Shown here: positions 1 to 12,158 of the stretch, one piece after another
Layout: each line of letters starts with the position of its first letter
Position numbering within the stretch: the stretch's first letter is position 1
Virus record (IMG/VR): IMGVR_UViG_642979322_000011
Reading direction: 5' to 3' (one strand)
From: a virus
Lineage: Duplodnaviria > Heunggongvirae > Uroviricota > Caudoviricetes
Length of the DNA: 64,000 nucleotides
Made by a program: the position numbers and the translations under genes
Notes under the pieces: generated by a model
The model's input: only the letters and a program-made list of their open reading frames with translations
What the model was told of the DNA's origin: nothing
Database searches by the model: none

Positions 1-177
1 ATGGAAAAAGACCTGAAAGAGTTGCGGGAATACCTATTACTTTCCCCCGTCTATTCTGAAATTAACGATTGTCTGGCTAGTCTCTCAATGGAAGACGTGA
101 CCAATGAAGAGTTCGCGGAACGTTTGGGAATTGCTCCTGATTGGATGGATGCTATAGATACTAGCCAACTTGCTTAA
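1..177 (+). CDS. 3' end of a gene entering from upstream, or a 58-codon small ORF; unknown function
   Basis: Open frame from position 1 to TAA at 175-177; followed by a GC hairpin (186-202) and a T-rich stretch. Confidence 0.25.
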   Translation: MEKDLKELREYLLLSPVYSEINDCLASLSMEDVTNEEFAERLGIAPDWMDAIDTSQLA

Positions 178-185
178 GAAAGGAT

Positions 186-212
186 GCGCCATTGCTGGGC
201 GCGTTTCTCATT
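186..212 (+). terminator. Possible intrinsic terminator
   Basis: GCGCC-7nt-GGCGC stem followed by a T-rich tract. Confidence 0.3.
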
Positions 213-363
213 TCTCCCGTAGCACTACGCATACCTTCTAATAAATTTCACCATCAAAATCAGTAGATTGATAAAATGTCACTCAAATCTGTCATAAGTA
301 TCACAATTTTTAAACCTAATTGAAATATAATGTTATTAGATATTATCTAATGGAGGTAGTTTA

Positions 364-1776
364 ATGTCTTATGCGTTGATTGATAATGCTTCGTTAACAG
401 CAGTCGAAAGAACACTGGGTGATATTCTTGTTAAGAATCCAGATACTATTAACGGAGATTTAGTCGCTTTTGAAAATCTTATTCAAGCGATACTTTTTTA
501 CGATACCCTGATCTGTGTAGATAATTATAAAAAAGAATATAGAGATAAACGCATTGCTAAATTTGACTTTATTAAATTTGTATCTGAAAGTGATTTTCAA
601 CTCAGTGAACTTGATCAGTTAGCACAAGTTGAATCTCGGCAAATTACTTCCGAAATTAGAGGTGGGGAGTTTGTTGACGATGATTTTAGGCAACTTGTAG
701 AGATGCTTAAGCTGAATATGATTTGCACATGGGATCTTCGGTCTAGCGTGTATTACTTAACAATGAAAATGCTTGGTCAGCCCGGTACTCCTGAATATGC
801 GAAATATAGTGAACTAAGTGCATCGATTTTTAATGAATTATCAGATGCTTCTGATACGAAAGGGTACTGGTCAACCGATGTGAAGCTAGTGAGTTCATCT
901 GGACATGAATATACTGAGCGTGAATTTGAACTAGAAAGGGAAAAATCTACTCGCGGTAAAGGAGGTATGACTCGTTCACTTGAAATGTTTATCGCATCGC
1001 TAAATTGGTTGGCATATAAATCTATTTATTACAGCGTCATTGCTAAGCATTTTAAAGCAGACTCATTTATTCATCCAATAAGGCATGCATATCAATTGCA
1101 TTGGATGAAAAAAACAGGTGCTTTTGGTCATGATTATACTGCAAGGTTGGTGCAATCGTTGTCTGATAAAATCAGTACTGCAAGATCTGAAATTGTAGAT
1201 CATGGACGCACATCTACTATTTCATTAGATTTACCAATATTTTCTGCATGGCTAGCAAACGAAACAGGAAATGTCTCTCAAGTTATCAATTCAGCTTTAG
1301 AGCTTAGAACACATGATCATTTTCGTACGTGTCGAGATGTAATCCGAGAGATTCATGTGACCTACGATGAATCGGGGATAAGTGCAGGAAATAAAAAAGT
1401 AACAAAATTACTAAGTGATTTAGATAAAATATCTGGAGATATTAAACGAAGCTACGGTGTTCCATCAAATCAAGGTATTCAAGGCAGTTTTTTGATAAAA
1501 TGTATAAATTCATTGACAGGACTCGTGGGTATTCCAGGTTTGCCTGATAAAGAGTTTGCACTGAGCACTCCTGAATTTATGAAGTCTAAACAACATAAAG
1601 CATTTTCTACCGTTTTCAAGGATGTTACTAACGAACTAACAAGCATTGAACGTTTAGGTGGGCTTCGGGATAAATTAGCGTCGAACTTTACTATTGATGA
1701 TTCTTATTATACCGAGCCAAAAACAGAGGATCCGAGATTCCGTTACGTAAGTAGTAATTGGAAGCAGCCAATGTAG
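364..1776 (+). CDS. Hypothetical protein, AT-rich orphan gene (470 aa)
   Basis: Long ORF with GGAGG RBS 8 nt upstream of ATG and TATAAT-like -10 at ~328; very low GC versus surroundings; no family recognised. Confidence 0.6.
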   Translation: MSYALIDNASLTAVERTLGDILVKNPDTINGDLVAFENLIQAILFYDTLICVDNYKKEYRDKRIAKFDFIKFVSESDFQLSELDQLAQVESRQITSEIRGGEFVDDDFRQLVEMLKLNMICTWDLRSSVYYLTMKMLGQPGTPEYAKYSELSASIFNELSDASDTKGYWSTDVKLVSSSGHEYTEREFELEREKSTRGKGGMTRSLEMFIASLNWLAYKSIYYSVIAKHFKADSFIHPIRHAYQLHWMKKTGAFGHDYTARLVQSLSDKISTARSEIVDHGRTSTISLDLPIFSAWLANETGNVSQVINSALELRTHDHFRTCRDVIREIHVTYDESGISAGNKKVTKLLSDLDKISGDIKRSYGVPSNQGIQGSFLIKCINSLTGLVGIPGLPDKEFALSTPEFMKSKQHKAFSTVFKDVTNELTSIERLGGLRDKLASNFTIDDSYYTEPKTEDPRFRYVSSNWKQPM

Positions 1777-2040
1777 ATATAGTTAAATGTATAATTATAA
1801 GTAATAACAATTTACAGACATTATTGAATTAAAAATAATTGCGTTAGGGTATAATATCTAACGCAATTAGATTGAAAAGTTAATTAAATAGTTAGTCAGA
1901 GCTAACTTCTTGTATTGTTAGTTACACTGCCTAACCTACAGACAAAAAGCCCCTCAGAATTGTGCTTACGCGCTCAAATTTCACTGCTGGGGATTTTTAC
2001 GTACATTCAACCCAAAAAGTGACCAAAAAAGTTCTTACAG

Positions 2041-2150
2041 AGTTGACGTTACGTTGACGTTGTTTTCTGAAAATGATCCCTTGGTGACTTATTTTATGTA
2101 TTTGATTTTACGTTTTTTCTTTAATGTTTTATCACTTTAAACTAACGTCA
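2041..2150. repeat. TTGACGTT direct repeats with an inverted copy about 90 bp downstream; iteron- or operator-like
   Basis: agTTGACGTTacgTTGACGTTg at 2041-2062 and AACGTCAA at 2143-2150 in AT-rich non-coding DNA. Confidence 0.3.
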
Positions 2151-2446
2151 ACTTATCCTTATAGAGCGATTAATTTCTATAAGTACTTTTTCTCAAAATT
2201 TGATTTTTACGGATGGAAGTCCATCAAAGAAACGTCATTTTTTTCTAAGACTTTGATCTTTCGTTAACGGTGTTAGTGGGGACTTCGGTCGTCGAGCGCG
2301 ATGCGCTTCTGACCGTTTCAATGGATAGGTTCGCCTTCTTGCGCCTCTCGCGGCGTTTGCCGCGCTCCGCGCTTTTGGCGGTTTGGCAGGCATATCTCTC
2401 TTATTATTGGTCGTTTTTTGCACCGCCTTGTCACGATCTGTCACTA

Positions 2447-3142
2447 CTAGTAGTAATGGTCATAACCTCCGCTTTCTCTTTTGGCTCTGGATGCTCTCAC
2501 TCGTGCTCTTCTTAACATCCTTAACAGTGGGTGGGTTTGTACTTTGTTCGAGTTTATTATCTGTGAGGATAGTAATTCCCTGCGCTCTGTCTCTGCCTCT
2601 TTGGTGACCGCTATCACTGATAAATCCCAATCGTGTTTGCTAATTAACGGTGCTTGGAACGGGGTGATTGGTGATCGATTTATGTCTTGTCGTTTCAATG
2701 TACGCTGTATCTGTCGCTTAGCTTTGTAGTTGTCTTTCCTTGATGCCTGAACGGCTTTTAGTATGCGTCTTACAGCATGAAAGCCAGTGATAGAAAGTGT
2801 TTCTTTTTTTATCTCATGCCGCGCCCAGCCATTCGAATAACCCCAAACGTTGGCATCTGACCAATCATATAGGCTCTTGCTCGCCTCTCTATTAAAGTCA
2901 TTTAACTTAGTTTCGGGCTTTGCCATGTAATCAATCTGTTTACCTATACACTTTGTAGGCTCTGAATATTGCTGACCTTTCAAATCTAGATCCCACTGGG
3001 GAGGAACATTTGATGGGATTGCATTGTTTGCCAGTGTTACCCATTTGCTGACAATTTTGCCAGCTTGCCCATTAATGCTTCTTTCGTTCACCATGATTAT
3101 TGCGTGTACATGCGGCTCTGACTGGTGTTGAGCCCACTCCAT
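2447..3142 (-). pseudogene. Relaxase-like fragment (MobA/MOBQ-type HUH motif), 5'-truncated
   Basis: EPHVHAIIMVNERS resembles the NPHCHLMISER HUH motif of RSF1010 MobA; N-terminal catalytic Tyr region absent; abuts a tail-fibre fragment on the opposite strand. Confidence 0.4.
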
Positions 3143-3694
3143 GACGTAAACCCACTGATTGCCTTGAATGAAAGCGATATTGCATCGCTTGATACCAGAG
3201 TTCAGTCGCTGGAATCGCAGGTTTCAGACCATGAAACGCGCATTAATGCTCTGGAGTATGCCACTACGCGCAAGAAGTCAGAGGTTGTTTACTCTGGCGT
3301 ATCAGTAACCATCCCGACAGCGCCGACCAACCTTGTTAGCCTGCTGAAAACGCTTACGCCGTCATCCGGGACGTTGGCACCATTCTTCGACACCGTTAAC
3401 AACAAGATGGTTGTGTTCAACGAGAACAAAACCTTGTTCTTCAAGCTGTCGATTGTCGGGACGTGGCCCAGCGGAACCGCCAACAGGTCAATGCAGCTAA
3501 CATTCTCCGGTTCTGTTCCTGACACGCTAGTAAGCAGTCGCAACTCGGCAACAACAACCGACAACATCCTGTTAGCTACGTTCTTCAGCGTGGATAAAGA
3601 CGGCTTTCTTGCCACAAATGGCAGCACGTTAACCATTCAGTCGAATGGCGCGGCGTTTACTGCCACAACCATCAAAATCATTGCGGAGCAGTGA
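3125..3694 (+). pseudogene. Phage tail fibre C-terminal fragment
   Basis: Coiled-coil then Ser/Thr/Asn-rich beta-type C-terminus typical of tail fibre tips; no N-terminal domain; stop overlaps next ATG (TGATG). Confidence 0.45.
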
Positions 3695-4837: not shown

Positions 4838-5500
4838 ATGGCTACTTGGCAACAAGGAATCAACTCAGGCGGTTTTCTTGCTGGTATCGGTGGGCAAAAC
4901 TCAAATGCGCCAAAGGCAAGTGATGTAAGTGAGGCGTTGGCCTATATTCGCCAGAACAACGAAATGGAGCGTTCAGGTCGCAATAACATCGGCCTTCAGG
5001 CGTTGCAGGGACTTGGTAGTGTCGCTCAAACATCTCAAGCCGCAAAGCAACAGGAAGCGGATGCTGCATTCCAAAAAGAATATGCGGCAGCCATCCAGTC
5101 CGGCGATCGACAGCAGGTTCGAGATCTGATGACCAAATATCCTGGTCAATTAGAGAAGATTCAGTCTGGTATGAAGTGGGCAGACGAAGACCAGCGCAAT
5201 TCTATCGGCACCTTAGCGGCTGGCGCACGCCTTGCGGCCTCGTCTCCAGAAGCAATGCAATCATGGCTGCAAAACACGCCAAGGAACTGGCGCGCGTCGG
5301 TGTTGACCCTAACAACGTTGCTCAGATGTATCAGCAGAATCCTTCAGGGTTTGGTGAGTTGTTTATCACCTTGGGATGGCTGCTCTCGGTCCGATTGACT
5401 ACTTCAATGTTCAGGACAAGATGGCTGGTCGTGAGATTGACCGAGGCAGGCTGGCAGAGACAATCCGCAGCAATCAGGCCGGAGATTTTGAGTTTAAGTC
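4838..5500 (+). pseudogene. Internal virion protein-like gene broken by two frameshifts
   Basis: Protein-like sequence continues across three frames (track ORFs 4838, 5176, 5376). Confidence 0.4.
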
Positions 5501-5972
5501 AAAGCCGTCATATTTAGTTCTATCATTTGCTGAAATATCATCTGTAGTCTTTATCCTAATGTCTGTCTATATGGTGGCAAAAAGTCAAAATAGCAATGGA
5601 TTACAGTATGATGCGCTTTTTATACCATCAATGGCCTTTTCAATATTAGTGTTTTCGTTTAATGGTGGTATTATTTCAAAAATAATATCAAATAAAGTTA
5701 TGATACTTTTAGGTGATGCTTCTTTTTCATTTTACTTGGTCCATACTATAGTAATCAGTACATTGAGCAAGTTCTTTAATGTTTCTGGTCTTGGTGCTAT
5801 AAGTGTAATTAAATTTATAGTAATGGCTCTGTTTGCTTCATTATTTATATCAATAATGATGTATTTGTTTTTTGAAAAGCCAATAAACAATAAGCTAAGA
5901 AAATGGTGGAGTGGATTTAAGAATGATGTTTCAACCACTCGAGTTGAAAAAATAGAAGGCAATCAATTATAG
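5500..5972 (+). pseudogene. Acyltransferase-3 family (O-antigen acetylase-like) C-terminal fragment
   Basis: AT-rich membrane segment with [13 protein letters not shown] motif typical of OafA/Oac acyltransferase C-termini; no N-terminal part. Confidence 0.45.
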
Positions 5973-6145: not shown

Positions 6146-7303
6146 CTACTCCACCTTCCCATCAAGCCAGTCCGCCCACCACTGCATCATTTCTCTGCGC
6201 TTATCGAGATACTGAGCATGGTTGTAAATCCCACGCACAGATCCGCCGTTGGCATGTGCTAGTTGCACTTCAATAGCGTCAGCAGGCCATTCGTGCTCGT
6301 TCATAATCGTGCTGAATTCATGCCTGAATCCGTGACCGCTTTCCAGACCTTCATAGCCGATTTGTTTGATCACAAGCAGTACAGCGTTCTCACAGATTGA
6401 CTTCTTCTTATCGTTGCGCCCGGCAAAAACAAACTCTGATACTGGTTTAGTGATGGAGCTTAGCGTAGTGAGAAGTTCAACAACCTGGTCCGACATCGGA
6501 ACCACATGAATCTTGCGTCCCTTCATCACACTGGCCTCGATGGTGATAATCCTGTTTTCAAAATCGACGTTCTTCCATTGCATGGAACGAAGCTCTTTCG
6601 TTCTTAGTGCTGTGTAGCGTAAAACTTTGGTCGCAATGAGAGATACGATACTTCCTGAAAATGTTGCAAGTGCTTTGTTGAATGCCGGGATCTGGTCGGC
6701 AGGTAAAAACGGGAAGTTCTTCTTGCGGTATCCCTTCATGGCTTCAGCAAGGTCAGGTGCCGGGTTATATTTAGCCCTTCCGGTGACAATAGCGTAACGG
6801 AAAACCTCGCCGCATCTTCTGCGTGCTTTGTTGGCTCGCTCCATTGCCCCGCGATCTTCAAATCTGCGGATTACTTCCAGCAGTTGCATCGGCTCAATAT
6901 CCTGAATTTCAAGGCCGCCGATGATAGGTAAAATGTCGTCATCAAACATTTTTGCAAGTTCAGTCGCATAGGCGGCTGACCAGACTTGCCTCTTATGCTC
7001 GTACCATTCCTTGTAAATCGCACTAAAGGAATTGTTGTTAGACGAAGCCTTTTTCGCCTTTACCGGATCGATGCCAACCGAGATGTCTTTCCTCGCAGTC
7101 CATGCTTTATCCCTTGCCTCTTGCAAAGTCATAAGCGGATATTTTCCGACGGTCAGGATTTTCTCCTTACCGTCAATCTTGTAGCGAAGCTGCCATACCT
7201 TTTTCCCTGATACAGGGACATAAAGGTACAGGCCATTACCATCGAGTAGGCGGTATGGTTTTTCTTTCGGCTTTGCTGCTTCAATCTGCTTAACGGTGAG
7301 CAT
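6146..7303 (-). CDS. intS: Tyrosine integrase, P4/IntS family
   Basis: 385-aa product from MLTVKQIEAAKPKEKPYRLLDGNG, matches recalled K-12 IntS N-terminus and length; immediately 3' of and co-directional with argW. Confidence 0.9.
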   Translation of the reverse strand: MLTVKQIEAAKPKEKPYRLLDGNGLYLYVPVSGKKVWQLRYKIDGKEKILTVGKYPLMTLQEARDKAWTARKDISVGIDPVKAKKASSNNNSFSAIYKEWYEHKRQVWSAAYATELAKMFDDDILPIIGGLEIQDIEPMQLLEVIRRFEDRGAMERANKARRRCGEVFRYAIVTGRAKYNPAPDLAEAMKGYRKKNFPFLPADQIPAFNKALATFSGSIVSLIATKVLRYTALRTKELRSMQWKNVDFENRIITIEASVMKGRKIHVVPMSDQVVELLTTLSSITKPVSEFVFAGRNDKKKSICENAVLLVIKQIGYEGLESGHGFRHEFSTIMNEHEWPADAIEVQLAHANGGSVRGIYNHAQYLDKRREMMQWWADWLDGKVE

Positions 7304-7464
7304 GGGTAAAAATCCGGTGGGTAAAATTATTTTATCCACTTTTTACCCGTCATGGCGTGCGGCTGTCAACGATCTGACGCGAACCATGACGAACTCTGAA
7401 TCTACGGAAGGCTTGATATTCAGGGGATTTTGCGGACTGGTACGGATGGAGGCGAACTGATAAA

Positions 7465-7540
7465 TGGTGTCCCCTGCAGGAATCGAACCTGCAATTAGCC
7501 CTTAGGAGGGGCTCGTTATATCCATTTAACTAAGAGGACG
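7465..7540 (-). tRNA. argW: tRNA-Arg (anticodon CCU)
   Basis: Reverse complement reads GTCCTCTTAGTTAAATGGATATAACGAGCCCCTCCTAAGGGCTAATTGCAGGTTCGATTCCTGCAGGGGACACCA; cloverleaf with CCT anticodon and encoded CCA. Confidence 0.9.
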
Positions 7541-7734
7541 TTGTTGCGTATTGATTTTGGTTGTTCACCATATGACTGATAATACCGTCTTTATGGTTTT
7601 AAAATCAAGGTGTAAGTTTGTTTTTGTTCATGGTTGATTATCTTCTTTTGCGTTGAAAAGTGTTTTGTTCACTTGCTAATGCGTACATATTGAGTACAGA
7701 ATACATTATAAACTTGTGTACAGGATATAAAGCA

Positions 7735-8904
7735 TTGGCACTGAGCGACACCAAACTACGAGGCCTCTACGGAAAACCCTACTCTGGCCCTGCTGAAATC
7801 ACCGATGGTGACGGGTTAAGTGTGCGGATTACTCCAGCAGGAACTATCACGTTTCAGTACCGTTATCGCTGGAATGGTAAGCCAGTACGTCTTACTGTCG
7901 GGCGCTATCCGTCTACTTCACTGAAGGACGCGCGTGTTATCGTCGGTGAGATGCGCGCATTGTACATGAAGGGAGTTAACCCTAAAAATTATTTTGCGCC
8001 CAGTGACGGCGAACTGACATTAAAAGAATGCCTGGATCAGTGGTGGGATAAGTATGTTACTGATCTGAAACCCAATACACAGACGCTTTACAGATCCGTC
8101 GTGTACAACACTATGTACACACAGTTTGAAGGCTCGCCAGTTGCCGGTATCCCTGTATCGGCTTGGGCTCGCTTTTTTGACAAGCAAGAAAGCCTCAACA
8201 AGAAAAAGGCTCGTGTTCTGTTGTTACAACTGCGTTCAGTTATTAACTGGTGTATCAGCCGCCAGTTAATCCCATCATGCGAATTACTCAAACTTAGTGT
8301 AAAGAATATTGGGAAGAAACCAGATGTGGGGAGTCGCGTACTTACCTATACGGAACTGGCAAAGATCTGGCTGGCACTGGAGAACTCAAAAGTGGTTACT
8401 TCCAACAAGCTGTTACATCAATTGCTATTGCTATGGGGGGCCAGGCTTTCTGAGCTACGTCTCGCTACAGCCAGTGAGTTCAACATGGAAGATCTGGTCT
8501 GGACAACCCCTAAAGAGCATTCAAAGATGGGTAATATTATCCGGCGTCCGATATTTACTCAGGTTGAGCCTTATATTGAGCGATTGCTTAATGCGGGTTT
8601 TGATGTGCTATTCCCCGGGCAGGAAATAGATAAACCTATTGATCGTTCGTCGGCTAATTTGTACATGAAAAAGTTAAGGGAGAAAATTGATATTCCTGAA
8701 TGGAGAACGCATGATTTTAGGCGTTCTCTGGTAACGAATTTATCTGGGGAAGGAATTATGCCCCACGTCACTGAAAAAATGCTGGGGCATGAACTTGGGG
8801 GAGTTATGGCCGTGTATAATAAACACGACTGGTTGTCGGAACAGAAAGATGCGTATGAGTTGTATGCTGATAAAATTTTCTGGCACGCTAAACAGCTCGG
8901 TTAA
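7735..8904 (+). CDS. Tyrosine integrase (phage integrase family with N-terminal arm-binding domain)
   Basis: Conserved N-terminus ALSDTKLRGL begins at a TTG (7735) with AGGA RBS; C-terminal catalytic region with HDFRRS; track ORF starts earlier at GTG. Confidence 0.85.
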   Translation: MALSDTKLRGLYGKPYSGPAEITDGDGLSVRITPAGTITFQYRYRWNGKPVRLTVGRYPSTSLKDARVIVGEMRALYMKGVNPKNYFAPSDGELTLKECLDQWWDKYVTDLKPNTQTLYRSVVYNTMYTQFEGSPVAGIPVSAWARFFDKQESLNKKKARVLLLQLRSVINWCISRQLIPSCELLKLSVKNIGKKPDVGSRVLTYTELAKIWLALENSKVVTSNKLLHQLLLLWGARLSELRLATASEFNMEDLVWTTPKEHSKMGNIIRRPIFTQVEPYIERLLNAGFDVLFPGQEIDKPIDRSSANLYMKKLREKIDIPEWRTHDFRRSLVTNLSGEGIMPHVTEKMLGHELGGVMAVYNKHDWLSEQKDAYELYADKIFWHAKQLG

Positions 8905-9070
8905 TTCCTCCGGCTTTAAGCCATTGTTCAACGGCCTGACGACTATATCGCGCCGGATGAGTAAGTACTGGATCAGGGAATCCGTGTTTTTTTCGCAAAT
9001 TATACAAAGCTGTGCGCCTTTTTTGTAACAACTCAGAAACTTCTTTTTCGGTCATTAAGTTGATTTCCAT
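8888..9070 (-). CDS. AlpA-family excisionase/transcriptional regulator
   Basis: 60-aa HTH protein convergent with integrase 3' end; MTEKEVSELLQ...YSRQAVEQWLK. Confidence 0.6.
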   Translation of the reverse strand: MEINLMTEKEVSELLQKRRTALYNLRKKHGFPDPVLTHPARYSRQAVEQWLKAGGINRAV

Positions 9071-9130
9071 AGTATGCTCTCCTTTTCTACATGTTTTTCA
9101 ACAGCATAATAAACCGCCCGAAGGCGGTTG

Positions 9131-9382
9131 TTAGTTGATTGATGTACGGCGCATTTTTCGAAGGCTGGCAATATGCTTTTCCTTCTCAATTTCCGCTTTA
9201 ATCATATGCAGTTCGTTGTGCTCTATTCGCTCAAATTCTTCATTAAATGCACCAATTGAAGTGGCTCTGGTTCTGCCGTCGAGCCTTCGGTAGATCACCT
9301 GAGTCAGAGTTACCTTGCATATTTCTACCGGATAGTTGTTGGCATCAACGAAAGACTGCCCGCGCTGGATCAGGACGAACAC
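9131..9382 (-). CDS. Hypothetical protein
   Basis: ORF with GTG start and AAGGA RBS; AT-rich. Confidence 0.35.
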   Translation of the reverse strand: MFVLIQRGQSFVDANNYPVEICKVTLTQVIYRRLDGRTRATSIGAFNEEFERIEHNELHMIKAEIEKEKHIASLRKMRRTSIN

Positions 9383-9750
9383 TGGTTGTATTCCTTGAGT
9401 GCCATATCATAAACACGGCATGCCGAGAGGTGTGTTGTAGTCAACGTCGTTCGTATCCTGAAAAGTCCATGTGTTGTGACGGTAACTTCCGGGGCTTTGA
9501 GTTTCACTGCATCAACGATATGCTGATGTTTGCGGCTTTCGAATATAGAGCTGGATATAACCACACTTGCTGTTAAACCGTAACTTTCAAATGTGATTTT
9601 CATGTCATTATCCTCGCAGTTAGCCGGGCAACAAAAATAAATAATGTTGTTCCTGCGAATAACAGGATACCGCCCGTCATTAGAGAAAGGAAAAACAATA
9701 TTAATGTACGCGGGGTGTTTCTCAAAATATTCTCTCTGTGATTCGCTCAC
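9370..9750 (-). CDS. Hypothetical protein
   Basis: ORF only; odd composition, may be mis-framed. Confidence 0.3.
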   Translation of the reverse strand: MSESQREYFEKHPAYINIVFPFSNDGRYPVIRRNNIIYFCCPANCEDNDMKITFESYGLTASVVISSSIFESRKHQHIVDAVKLKAPEVTVTTHGLFRIRTTLTTTHLSACRVYDMALKEYNQCSS

Positions 9751-10163
9751 TCTGACAATTCGTTGATCAAGTCACGGTATTTATTCAGTTCTTGCAACGC
9801 CTTACATGCACCCTCCCATCGTTTCTGTTTCCGCCCGGCGCGGCGCGCTTCTTTCCGTGATTTACGTAGCAGGTCGCCTATAATGTTGTGCTGCACTGGC
9901 TGCACTGGCTGCACTGGCTGCACTGGCTGCACTGGCTGCACTGGCTGCACTGGCTGCACTGGCTGCACTGAGGCGATATTTGGTTTTTTGTCCACTTCCC
10001 TTGCAACTGCCTGCCAGATGCCATTTTTTACAGTTACTACCCCCTGGTTTTTTAACTTCCATAGAGTGTCAATAACGTCATTCAAATCAATATTGAGACC
10101 TTTAGAAATACTTTCGGCTGATGCTTTTCCTAATTTGTTCAATTCTGTGAGCACTGCGTTCAT
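9747..10163 (-). CDS. Hypothetical phage protein with PVQ tandem repeat
   Basis: ORF encodes (VQP)x9 from a 9-bp DNA tandem repeat. Confidence 0.55.
   Translation of the reverse strand: MNAVLTELNKLGKASAESISKGLNIDLNDVIDTLWKLKNQGVVTVKNGIWQAVAREVDKKPNIASVQPVQPVQPVQPVQPVQPVQPVQPVQHNIIGDLLRKSRKEARRAGRKQKRWEGACKALQELNKYRDLINELSE
9891..9969. repeat. 9-bp tandem repeat CTGCACTGG, about 8.7 copies
   Basis: Perfect head-to-tail copies visible in sequence, in frame within CDS 9747-10163. Confidence 0.9.
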
Positions 10164-10198
10164 TTTTTTCTCCTGATATTTTAATGTCGGTGGGGCTG

Positions 10199-10411
10199 TT
10201 ATACGGTTGGTGAGGTGTCAGCTTCTTCTACCAGCTTTTCCAGTTCATCCAGCTTTCGGGAAAGAATTTCACCAAACAGATGAAGTTCTGCATCTGCTGT
10301 AATCGGGATTGGAACAAATCGTATTCCACTTCTGGCAAGTTGATTTGCGATTTCCAGACACTGCCTTAATTCAACTGGTGATGCCTTTGTCAACGTCGTT
10401 TTTTCGCTCAT
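10199..10411 (-). CDS. Small phage protein, paralogue of 17411-17602
   Basis: ASPVELRQCLEIANQLARSGIRFVPIPI vs ASPVELRTSIEMAHSLAQIGVRFVPIPV; start re-set to internal ATG (MSEKTTL). Confidence 0.5.
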   Translation of the reverse strand: MSEKTTLTKASPVELRQCLEIANQLARSGIRFVPIPITADAELHLFGEILSRKLDELEKLVEEADTSPTV

Positions 10412-10997
10412 TGGTTTTCTCCAGAAATTTAACAATACCCGGAACCATCTCAATGGATGGTGTGCCGCATTGGTTACCCCATACATCAAATCCATGCGAG
10501 GTGTGGCGGGCGAACAGTTCTATCCGGGGAACATCGCCAAGAAGTTGCACAAGTTTTTCTCGAGCCATATCCGGCTTGCGGGAGTGATCAAGGCGTGGTG
10601 CAGTGAATGACTGGATTATTCCGGCGTTAATGCGTTCGGGCAGATTTCCTTTCACTGCAAAAAGGCAGTCTTCGCTGTTAGCGCGAGTGGTGCTACCCAT
10701 ACCCATGACCAGCTTGTCGGTCTGTCTTTTCCCGCATTTGTTCCAGGTTAATCCTTTCATCGTCACCAGACGAAAGCCCCACGCTTCTACAACCTTCAAT
10801 GCTTCAAGTGGTTGTGTAGGCACCCACCACATAGCCAACAGGCAATTCTCGGCTGCCAGTTCCCATACCGGGAGGCGGCAGATATCCAGAAGACTCATGA
10901 CCGGATATTTAAAACTTGCACCGCGTTGACCATCGGTTGCTTTGTCGCGGAATGTCCAGGGGGGATCTGCGTAAATGAGGGTGTATTTTTTCGTCAT
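10371..10997 (-). CDS. Orphan N6-adenine DNA methyltransferase, MT-A70 family
   Basis: IYADPPW (DPPW catalytic motif) near N-terminus; ATG start confirmed. Confidence 0.75.
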   Translation of the reverse strand: MTKKYTLIYADPPWTFRDKATDGQRGASFKYPVMSLLDICRLPVWELAAENCLLAMWWVPTQPLEALKVVEAWGFRLVTMKGLTWNKCGKRQTDKLVMGMGSTTRANSEDCLFAVKGNLPERINAGIIQSFTAPRLDHSRKPDMAREKLVQLLGDVPRIELFARHTSHGFDVWGNQCGTPSIEMVPGIVKFLEKTNERKNDVDKGITS

Positions 10998-11425
10998 AGC
11001 GCGTTTTCAAACTCATCAATGTAAAGTCCTGCTTTAATCAGTCGGCGACGGCGTTCGGCCTTTTGCACGTATTCCTCGCGACAGTTTTTTGCTGCGTGTT
11101 CACGGCTTCTGCGACTGAATGGAGGAACGGCATTGCGTGAGCGAGGTGTGTCACGACGAGGATTTGATTCGAGGGAGAAAAAGCGATCAACGATTCCGGT
11201 GTCTGTGGTGAATGGTTCTGAAGCCTTTATTTTCACAACCTTACTGCCCTTTGTCAGGCCGCGAGCTACCTTGTTGAACTCGCAAAGTGAAACACCAAAT
11301 TTCTCTGCTATTTCACTGCCAGTAACAGGACGACCACGAGACTGAATCATCCAGGTGACGCGTTCTTTTAACCCACGGAAGGCACCGGGCCTTCCAGAAC
11401 GCCTGTAGAAAGCGATCTGTTTCAA
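10994..11425 (-). CDS. Hypothetical HTH protein
   Basis: TTG start with GGAGA RBS (alternative ATG at 11350); HTH-like VTGSEIAEKFGVS. Confidence 0.45.
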   Translation of the reverse strand: MKQIAFYRRSGRPGAFRGLKERVTWMIQSRGRPVTGSEIAEKFGVSLCEFNKVARGLTKGSKVVKIKASEPFTTDTGIVDRFFSLESNPRRDTPRSRNAVPPFSRRSREHAAKNCREEYVQKAERRRRLIKAGLYIDEFENAL

Positions 11426-11439
11426 ATTTTTGTCTCCAG

Positions 11440-11462
11440 ATATGAAAACCCCGACGGGATGT
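11440..11462 (-). terminator. Rho-independent terminator
   Basis: Minus strand CCCCGAC-5nt-GTCGGGG followed by TTTT, downstream of CDS 11481-12158. Confidence 0.5.
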
Positions 11463-11790
11463 CGGGGATGGTAGGGGAAGTTACAGGCTTAACGAGAAGC
11501 CTTTTCGGGAATTTCGATCTGACAGTCTTGAAATATCCTGTAGCGTGCGGCGCATTTCTTCCGTCAGATGTTTGAAGGCGTTAAATTCAGCGACAGCCGC
11601 ATCGACGTTATAGCCCTTGCTGTGTAGTTCGTTGAGGATACGCATGGTTGGGCTTGGCATGTCGAAGAGTACAGAAACGTCCAGGTTAAGAGTTTTTCGA
11701 TCAACATAGCTCATCATGGAGTAGGGGTGGTGCTCTGAAAACCACGATAGAGGGTAGTTGATAGATAGTGTTGATTCTGGAAGCTGAAGT
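11440..11790. repeat. Copy A of a ~350-bp intra-prophage repeat
   Basis: About 90% identical to 20235-20580 by eye; covers the 3' end of an antirepressor gene plus its terminator. Confidence 0.75.
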
Positions 11791-12158
11791 TGTTCTGGGA
11801 TTTTTTGACTGAAATAGCAGTCTTCCAGTTTTTCGAACACTTCCCACGCCCGATCGGTTTCGAGCATTTTTGCGTGACGGGCTGCGCCGCGTTCTGTCCA
11901 GAGGATGAGGGAGCGAACGTTACGGGCGATTTTCACAGAGTAGTTAAAAGCTACTCTGTGCTTGAACTCACGTAAAGTTTCACCTTCAAGTTTGAAGAAG
12001 TGTTTTTCCTCAATGAAACGACCTTTGTTTTCGTGGTGATTCTGGCGAATACGAATAGCTTCTGTGCCGTAAAGGTGCGCCAAAAGTTCGGTAGTGATAA
12101 CGGGGATCTGCTTGTAAGTAATCGTGGAGAGTGTTTCAACAGAAACTTGAGTTGTCAT
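11481..12158 (-). CDS. Antirepressor-like protein (ORF6N-type N-terminal domain, shared Rha-type C-terminal domain)
   Basis: N-terminus IPVITTELLAHLYGTEAIRIRQNHHENKGRFIEEKHFFKLEGETLREFK; C-terminal ~100 aa nearly identical to 20276-20923. Confidence 0.6.
   Translation of the reverse strand: MTTQVSVETLSTITYKQIPVITTELLAHLYGTEAIRIRQNHHENKGRFIEEKHFFKLEGETLREFKHRVAFNYSVKIARNVRSLILWTERGAARHAKMLETDRAWEVFEKLEDCYFSQKIPEQLQLPESTLSINYPLSWFSEHHPYSMMSYVDRKTLNLDVSVLFDMPSPTMRILNELHSKGYNVDAAVAEFNAFKHLTEEMRRTLQDISRLSDRNSRKGFSLSL

Follow-up and report, generated by a model that had tools for sequence, protein, structure and literature searches.

We have examined a 64,000-nucleotide (nt) stretch of DNA, the IMG/VR virus record IMGVR_UViG_642979322_000011 (hereafter, the window), with particular regard to a 470-amino-acid (aa) open reading frame (ORF) close to its left end, whose product is labelled 'hypothetical protein' in RefSeq. 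The window derives from the chromosome of Escherichia coli O157:H7: its bases 1-2300 matched 317 complete genomes at identities of at least 99%, all of these matches were chromosomal, and the genomes listed are mostly named O157:H7, with one O55:H7 among them. The RefSeq gene order at this locus begins with the csc sucrose genes, a DUF4942 fragment, a resolvase (208 aa), a 58-aa ORF and the 470-aa ORF, continues with a 215-aa 'hypothetical' protein on the minus strand, remnants of P22-like needle and ejection genes, intS and argW, and, beyond argW, reaches a second integrase and then a lambdoid prophage. Coordinates are collected in Table 1.

Table 1. Features at the left end of the window (strand left empty where none applies)
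Feature	Position	Strand	Remarks
58-aa ORF (WP_000409798, phrog_35119)	1-177	+	Backbone of the argW element; adjoins the resolvase gene
Terminator-like hairpin and T-run	182-206	+	Between the 58-aa ORF and the 470-aa gene
Cargo segment of the variable slot	244-1904		O157/O55-specific; limits from blastn flanks; the 470-aa gene is the sole gene inside
Module shared with Dickeya solani	323-1880	+	81% nucleotide identity; gene with ~40 nt upstream and ~100 nt downstream
Shine-Dalgarno sequence GGAGG	352-356	+	7 nt 5' of the ATG; kept in other genera
470-aa ORF (WP_000119352)	364-1776	+	Intact; ATG start
N-terminal beta/alpha domain, codons 1-137	364-774	+	Assigned as PIN-like
C-terminal alpha/beta and long-helix region, codons 138-470	775-1773	+	No detectable relative; putative sensor/regulatory role
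81-nt imperfect palindrome	1817-1897		13-bp core stem (1836-1848/1857-1869); at the 3' cargo edge; conserved in Dickeya
Rep-like gene (phrog_30534)	2447-3094	-	Longer orthologues match REP_ORF2-G2P; in the conserved right flank of the slot
intS integrase ORF	6146-7339	-	Beside argW
argW, tRNA-Arg(CCT)	7465-7539	-	Integration site shared by the elements stacked there

Approximately 200 other E. coli genomes matched only from base ~1905 or ~1940 to base 2300, and their loci show an intact small element at argW (~8 kb in length at a Klebsiella locus, L052) with the order integrase (428 aa), 246-aa ORF, AlpA, three small ORFs, Rep (REP_ORF2-G2P), variable DNA, 58- or 64-aa ORF, and resolvase. We placed the boundaries of the variable slot by blastn against five other E. 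coli loci. The conserved left flank extends up to ~208-243, and conservation resumes on the right at ~1905-1939 and runs to 3164; because of these flank limits, the O157 cargo can be defined as the segment from ~244 to 1904, which holds a single gene. Element DNA stops at 3164 and the P22-like remnant starts there. The sequence-only reading had assigned the gene to a prophage-remnant hotspot next to argW. Both argW and an integrase are present as it supposed, but the 470-aa gene is not part of the IntS/P22-like remnant: because the O157 element is cut off after Rep and abuts that remnant, the gene lies in a different and smaller element, whose own conserved DNA ends at 3164.

In other genomes the same slot is occupied by a SIR2_2+STAND protein of 826 aa, by PDC-S06 (858 aa; a PADLOC candidate, E = 0), by a ParA-like ATPase, by IS5 plus small ORFs, by a DpnII/MboI-like gene, by a two-gene pair of 821 and 330 aa (E. 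coli 675SK2, locus L045, 5263-8717) and, in Klebsiella, by an HNH_2 trio. A slot with changing cargo between fixed flanks is the classic pattern of a defence hotspot, and the alternative alleles found here include recognised defence systems. The 821- and 330-aa pair of 675SK2, which has no Pfam or PADLOC match, is a further unexplored candidate defence pair in its own right. The small argW element as a whole (window 1-3164, and loci L045-L049, L052 and L058, from E. coli and Klebsiella) has a satellite-like look and carries the defence hotspot. We considered EcCIMP1, a published E. coli phage-inducible chromosomal island, as the identity of this carrier element and rejected it, as EcCIMP1 has a primase and PerC.

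The 470-aa ORF is a real gene. Its ATG start and Shine-Dalgarno sequence are kept in the Dickeya, Vibrio and Stutzerimonas copies. Its GC content is 36.2% (25.5% at third codon positions) and that of the cargo segment is 34.2%, compared with 42-46% for adjacent DNA and 49.4% for the window as a whole. The intact long ORF, the strong ribosome-binding site and the GC content much lower than that of its neighbours, all of which had been claimed from sequence alone, are therefore borne out. The same reading had also mentioned promoter-like elements, and these have no statistical support; a scan of positions 178-363 for the sigma-70 consensus gave 0 sites at the scan threshold, and promoter-like sites were fewer in the upstream region (5) than in its own shuffled sequences (8.4), so that the claim is unproven. 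A perfect TATAAT occurs at 326-331, unaccompanied by a good -35 element. The ratio of nonsynonymous to synonymous substitution rates for the gene is 0.10 against the Dickeya copy and 0.07 against the Vibrio vulnificus copy, and homologous genes have a GC content of 36-40% in every host compared, these hosts differing widely from each other in GC. From these ratios, the constant GC content across hosts and the breadth of the family, we conclude that the 470-aa ORF is a real gene which is under strong purifying selection and is horizontally mobile.

The breadth of the family was apparent from searches of 5.8 billion proteins, which gave 233 matches, 120 of them listed. Among those listed, nearly all are full-length with identities of 54-85%, the ones that bear a name are labelled 'hypothetical', and close homologues occur in Dickeya, Vibrio, Salmonella, Shewanella, Aeromonas, Pseudomonas, Stutzerimonas, Undibacterium, Chromobacterium and others; identities of at least 80% span the Enterobacterales, Vibrionales and Alteromonadales. 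A second clade, at 33-40% identity, is represented in Halomonas, Serratia, Pectobacterium, V. vulnificus, Citrifermentans, Sulfurimonas and Verrucomicrobia, and also by a copy on a Clostridium kluyveri plasmid. A search of plasmids matched only four records. A profile search of 1.84 billion representatives at 50% identity gave 316 clusters, the full-length ones being 437-485 aa in length, and none of their full-length members is fused to another domain. The gene had been described as an orphan, which is wrong in view of the 233 close matches, the second clade and the roughly 316 clusters.

The accompanying statement, that the protein has no recognisable family motifs, agrees with our results. 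There was no meaningful match to Pfam, NCBIfam or PADLOC (0 families at E<=1 with the hidden Markov models of PADLOC-DB 2.0), sequence and profile searches of the PDB gave nothing meaningful, and neither did a Pfam scan of all 74 aligned family members. The single match in PHROGs was to an unnamed family, phrog_13435. Also, the gene had no tblastn match in 50,697 GenBank phage records and is, for this reason, not to be counted as a genuine phage gene. No paper on the protein family came up in a literature search for WP_000119352. The 470-aa protein is a member of a conserved, unnamed family of stand-alone proteins of ~470 aa.

The manner in which the gene moves could be seen from copies in other genera. 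In V. vulnificus (locus L034), a family gene (10001-11413) lies alone between superintegron attC sites at 9848-9978 and 11428-11558, and second-clade copies occupy differing positions of V. vulnificus arrays; in Stutzerimonas (locus L041), where an IntI-like gene is located at 6598-7560, the homologue lies between attC sites at 7905-7979 and ~9403-9474. The homologues in these two genera are single-gene integron cassettes. In the O157 copy we found no IntI and no array, and the R''/R' consensus of attC was unmet in both strict and loose scans. The module common to Dickeya solani extends beyond the gene on both sides, and Salmonella shares only 350-1788. The palindrome at the 3' edge of the cargo is predicted to fold stably (z = -4.65, with 0 of 200 shuffled sequences as stable) and may be either a terminator or a degenerate attC relic. 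Near the start of the O157 gene, GTTAT at 332-336 falls, in the alignment, where other copies have the R' box of their upstream attC site. A cassette origin for the O157 copy is only suggestive, because the attC consensus is unmet. When ORFs within 6 kb of the gene were clustered for 32 loci, no neighbour was common to more than five of them; that is, no conserved partner was found.

We also made the comparison of defence contexts across genomes that had been proposed with the sequence-only reading, for which we took, from 31 genomes, the two ORFs closest to the homologue on either side, 112 proteins in all. Among these neighbours were HamA (3 occurrences), HamB (2), LmuA (3), LmuB (4), DUF4365 (4), TIR_2 (2), PIN_8 (2), PIN_12 (2), an AEP-TOTE protein and PDC-S06, the last beside a Pseudomonas homologue. 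The Salmonella island around the homologue contains AbiGi, a BrxC/D-like ATPase-helicase-TerB cluster, Mrr, an antirestriction gene and CbtA/CbeA, and the Pectobacterium homologue comes next after a HEPN/Toprim protein, with CTD1-MComp1-SMC nearby. Homologues elsewhere thus sit in defence islands, with Hachiman, Lamassu, AbiG, PDC-S06 and TOTE genes, and recognised defence systems recur both in the slot and in the neighbourhoods of homologues.

Two other arrangements should be recorded. In Aeromonas hydrophila (loci L037-L040, gene 8001-9356), the homologue lies ~100 nt downstream of recD, where recBCD ends, and on the same strand; this site after recD repeats in most of the 24 contigs that were read, with no mobile-element genes called nearby, and the placement may be due to chance or, possibly, to a functional link to RecBCD. 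In Undibacterium (locus L002), a bona fide VapC/PIN toxin gene (11548-11961, minus strand), detected with VapC as a probe, is located ~140 nt downstream of the family member.

Structure prediction suggested what kind of protein this might be. An AlphaFold model made with a 74-sequence alignment from both clades had a predicted local distance difference test score (pLDDT) of 83.9 and a predicted template-modelling score of 0.87, and replaced an earlier, poor model (pLDDT 62) made with close homologues only. The N-terminal domain is predicted to have a three-layer alpha/beta/alpha fold whose sheet is parallel, and it can be superposed on PIN structures; the best structural matches were VapC/PIN ribonucleases (for example, PDB 1w8i, 4chg, 6a7v and 3tnd; ~105-122 residues superposed), with which it shares a similar beta-alpha order and an Asp that ends strand 1, after which a helix contributes an acidic residue. 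Near-invariant residues of this domain are D7 (at the end of strand 1, in the motif LIDN[AS][TS]), R16, G19, D32, E37, D47, D53, R63 and W123, and those that are invariant in the C-terminal region, which has a 47-residue helix, are P238 and R240 ('HPIR'), P291 and R324. Across 291 members, the conserved polar positions were D7, R16, D32, E37, D47, D53, R63, W123, Y223, R240 and R324, together with G19, P238 and P291. Conservation of the acidic residues is 94% for D7, 99% for D32, 97% for E37, and 90% for both D47 and D53, and is weaker at the later positions D105 (56%), D107 (51%) and D124 (73%).

In contrast to this resemblance at the level of the fold, remote-homology searches found no sequence or profile relative. 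Foldseek against the PDB and BFVD gave no match with E<0.1, Pfam PIN models had 0 matches among the 74 members at E<=5, the PDB profile search gave no PIN match, and hhalign of the N-terminal profile with VapC gave a probability of <1%, the VapC profile being a weak one of three sequences only. The family differs from VapC/PIN proteins in other ways as well: the 470-aa gene has no VapB-type antitoxin partner, its product is 3.5 times larger with an unrelated C-terminal region of 330 aa, and the third and fourth catalytic acids are only partly conserved. As a separate candidate, a HEPN RNase motif (R240 x5 H246; R-x(4-6)-H) was considered and rejected, since the His is not conserved.

Integron cassettes and satellite/prophage hotspots are documented sources of compact single-gene defence systems (bioRxiv 10.1101/2024.07.02.601686; 10.64898/2026.03.17.712381; PMC9122126). 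The context evidence makes a role in defence, or against mobile elements, the best explanation for the 470-aa gene, and we regard such a role as rather probable. That the protein is, more specifically, a self-sufficient mobile anti-phage or anti-mobile-element protein, most likely an effector of the abortive-infection type, is the best explanation of this narrower kind, and its chances appear to us evenly balanced. The defence and nuclease activities, and likewise a target, a trigger and autoinhibition, are our inferences. In the scheme we propose, the ~137 N-terminal residues would form a PIN-like metal-dependent nuclease domain, whose acidic cluster of D7, D32/E37 and D47/D53, perhaps joined by D124, would cleave RNA or DNA. 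The C-terminal region of ~330 residues (P238/R240, P291, R324 and the 47-residue helix) would hold this nuclease in check until a sign of infection is detected. A PIN-like effector held in check in this way is the most likely mechanism, put forward tentatively from a resemblance of predicted folds only.

Several observations weigh against assigning the gene to defence. The Aeromonas homologue after recBCD and the Dickeya homologue, which is near an ars operon, are not in obviously defence-related positions; some slot alleles (the ParA-like gene and the small ORFs) are not known defence genes; and defence genes make up only a minority of integron cassettes.

A rival possibility is that the gene is not a defence gene but a selfish or adaptive accessory gene (for example, a toxin-like addiction factor for arrays or islands, or a stress enzyme) that travels together with defence genes. 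Most integron cassettes have no known defence role, with 18% of the tested V. cholerae cassettes positive (bioRxiv 10.1101/2024.07.02.601686), toxin-antitoxin modules are near several of the loci, and the Aeromonas copy occupies one repeated chromosomal place. However, no conserved antitoxin-like partner accompanies the gene, and the same slot and the neighbourhoods in unrelated genera repeatedly hold recognised defence systems; we consider such a role unlikely, if worth keeping in view. Comparably unlikely, and slightly the more so, is that the protein acts in defence with an N-terminal PIN-like/Rossmannoid fold which is not a nuclease and would bind a nucleotide or a signal, or act on another substrate, killing or blocking being the task of another part of the protein or of a host partner.

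The sequence-only reading had also suggested that the short ORF ending at 177 might be a partner of the 470-aa gene. The two are neighbours in O157 and are read from the same strand. However, the 58-aa ORF also accompanies other cargos (the SIR2-STAND gene, the 821- and 330-aa pair, and PDC-S06), is present on 528 Klebsiella contigs from which the 470-aa gene is absent, and was not seen beside homologues of that gene in 31 other genomes, so that the co-occurrence is not conserved; the small ORF upstream of the Dickeya copy (DUF6979) is unrelated to it; and, in O157 itself, a terminator-like hairpin parts the two ORFs. The 58-aa ORF is element backbone and not a partner, and a two-gene system is very improbable. 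Equally improbable is that the 470-aa gene, by its location between the Rep gene and the resolvase, serves the replication, packaging or transfer of the argW element, for unrelated genes replace it in sister elements with an intact backbone and it is also found in integrons and islands that have no such backbone. The comparative context (slot alleles, cassettes and islands) gives good support to the core of the earlier proposal, namely that a hotspot here holds a single gene for anti-phage defence or abortive infection, although the parts of it that called for an orphan gene and a partner fail.

The preferred reading, a self-sufficient mobile defence protein, can be set beside systems already described. 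Like the single-gene anti-phage integron cassettes of Darracq et al. (bioRxiv 10.1101/2024.07.02.601686), with which the work of Kieffer et al. and Getz et al., so far as it is cited in 10.64898/2026.03.17.712381, can be grouped, the homologues in Vibrio and Stutzerimonas are compact and autonomous, each a cassette of one ORF with attC sites on both sides in a sedentary chromosomal integron; unlike them, the family has no PADLOC 2.0 model, and the O157 copy is outside an integron and has no consensus attC. The P2/P4 prophage and satellite hotspots (PMC9122126) likewise have fixed flanks around a strain-variable slot, which here includes SIR2-STAND, PDC-S06, restriction-like and HNH genes. The carrier differs, in that it is an integrase/AlpA/Rep/resolvase element of ~8 kb at argW, with a Rep of the rolling-circle replication type, and is truncated and fused to a P22-like remnant in O157; we found no description of such an argW element as a hotspot carrier. 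PDC-S06 and the SIR2-STAND (Avs-like) single-protein systems are alternative occupants of the exact slot, yet their domains (an ABC/SMC-type ATPase in the former, SIR2 with a STAND NTPase in the latter) are unrelated to the 470-aa protein.

Some features of the surrounding DNA may be added. The second integrase, of the tyrosine type (7660-8904), lies on the other side of argW and opens the lambdoid prophage, which contains bet/exo/gam, kil, cIII and a Ser/Thr kinase in the annotation of strain TR01. A cluster of tRNA-Met/Arg/Arg genes is located farther into the window (30669-30920), and argW carries a stack of several elements. Where the P22-like ejection-gene remnant meets intS, a very AT-rich stretch (28-36% GC) encodes a hydrophobic ORF of 198 aa (5376-5972, plus strand); TR01 annotates this region as one 378-aa 'ejection protein', which points either to a chimeric gene or to a frameshift by which the strains differ. 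TR01 also differs from the window by one single-base indel in the non-coding segment 1777-2446, so that positions in the TR01 locus (L001) are offset by 1 beyond the indel.

In summary, the defence hypothesis has been strengthened and sharpened, and we place the 470-aa gene among the candidates for new single-protein systems, of a general kind that is already known. Conceivably, though we hold this with some doubt, it defines a new single-protein immune system, in which a cryptic PIN-like nuclease, governed by a sensor domain of unseen fold, would be carried as a 1.5-kb integron cassette and hotspot cargo from Gammaproteobacteria to Clostridia, and be fixed in the O157:H7/O55:H7 lineage of E. 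coli. The family links three marketplaces of defence genes: integron cassettes, satellite-like elements and genomic islands. If our reading is correct, the argW AlpA/Rep/resolvase element of E. coli and Klebsiella would be a further carrier of a defence hotspot, and the known immune systems of bacteria would gain a compact, 1.4-kb, one-protein member with an undescribed regulatory fold. An explanation would also be at hand for a conserved, lineage-specific gene in the O157:H7/O55:H7 pathogens, in which phage traffic drives virulence.
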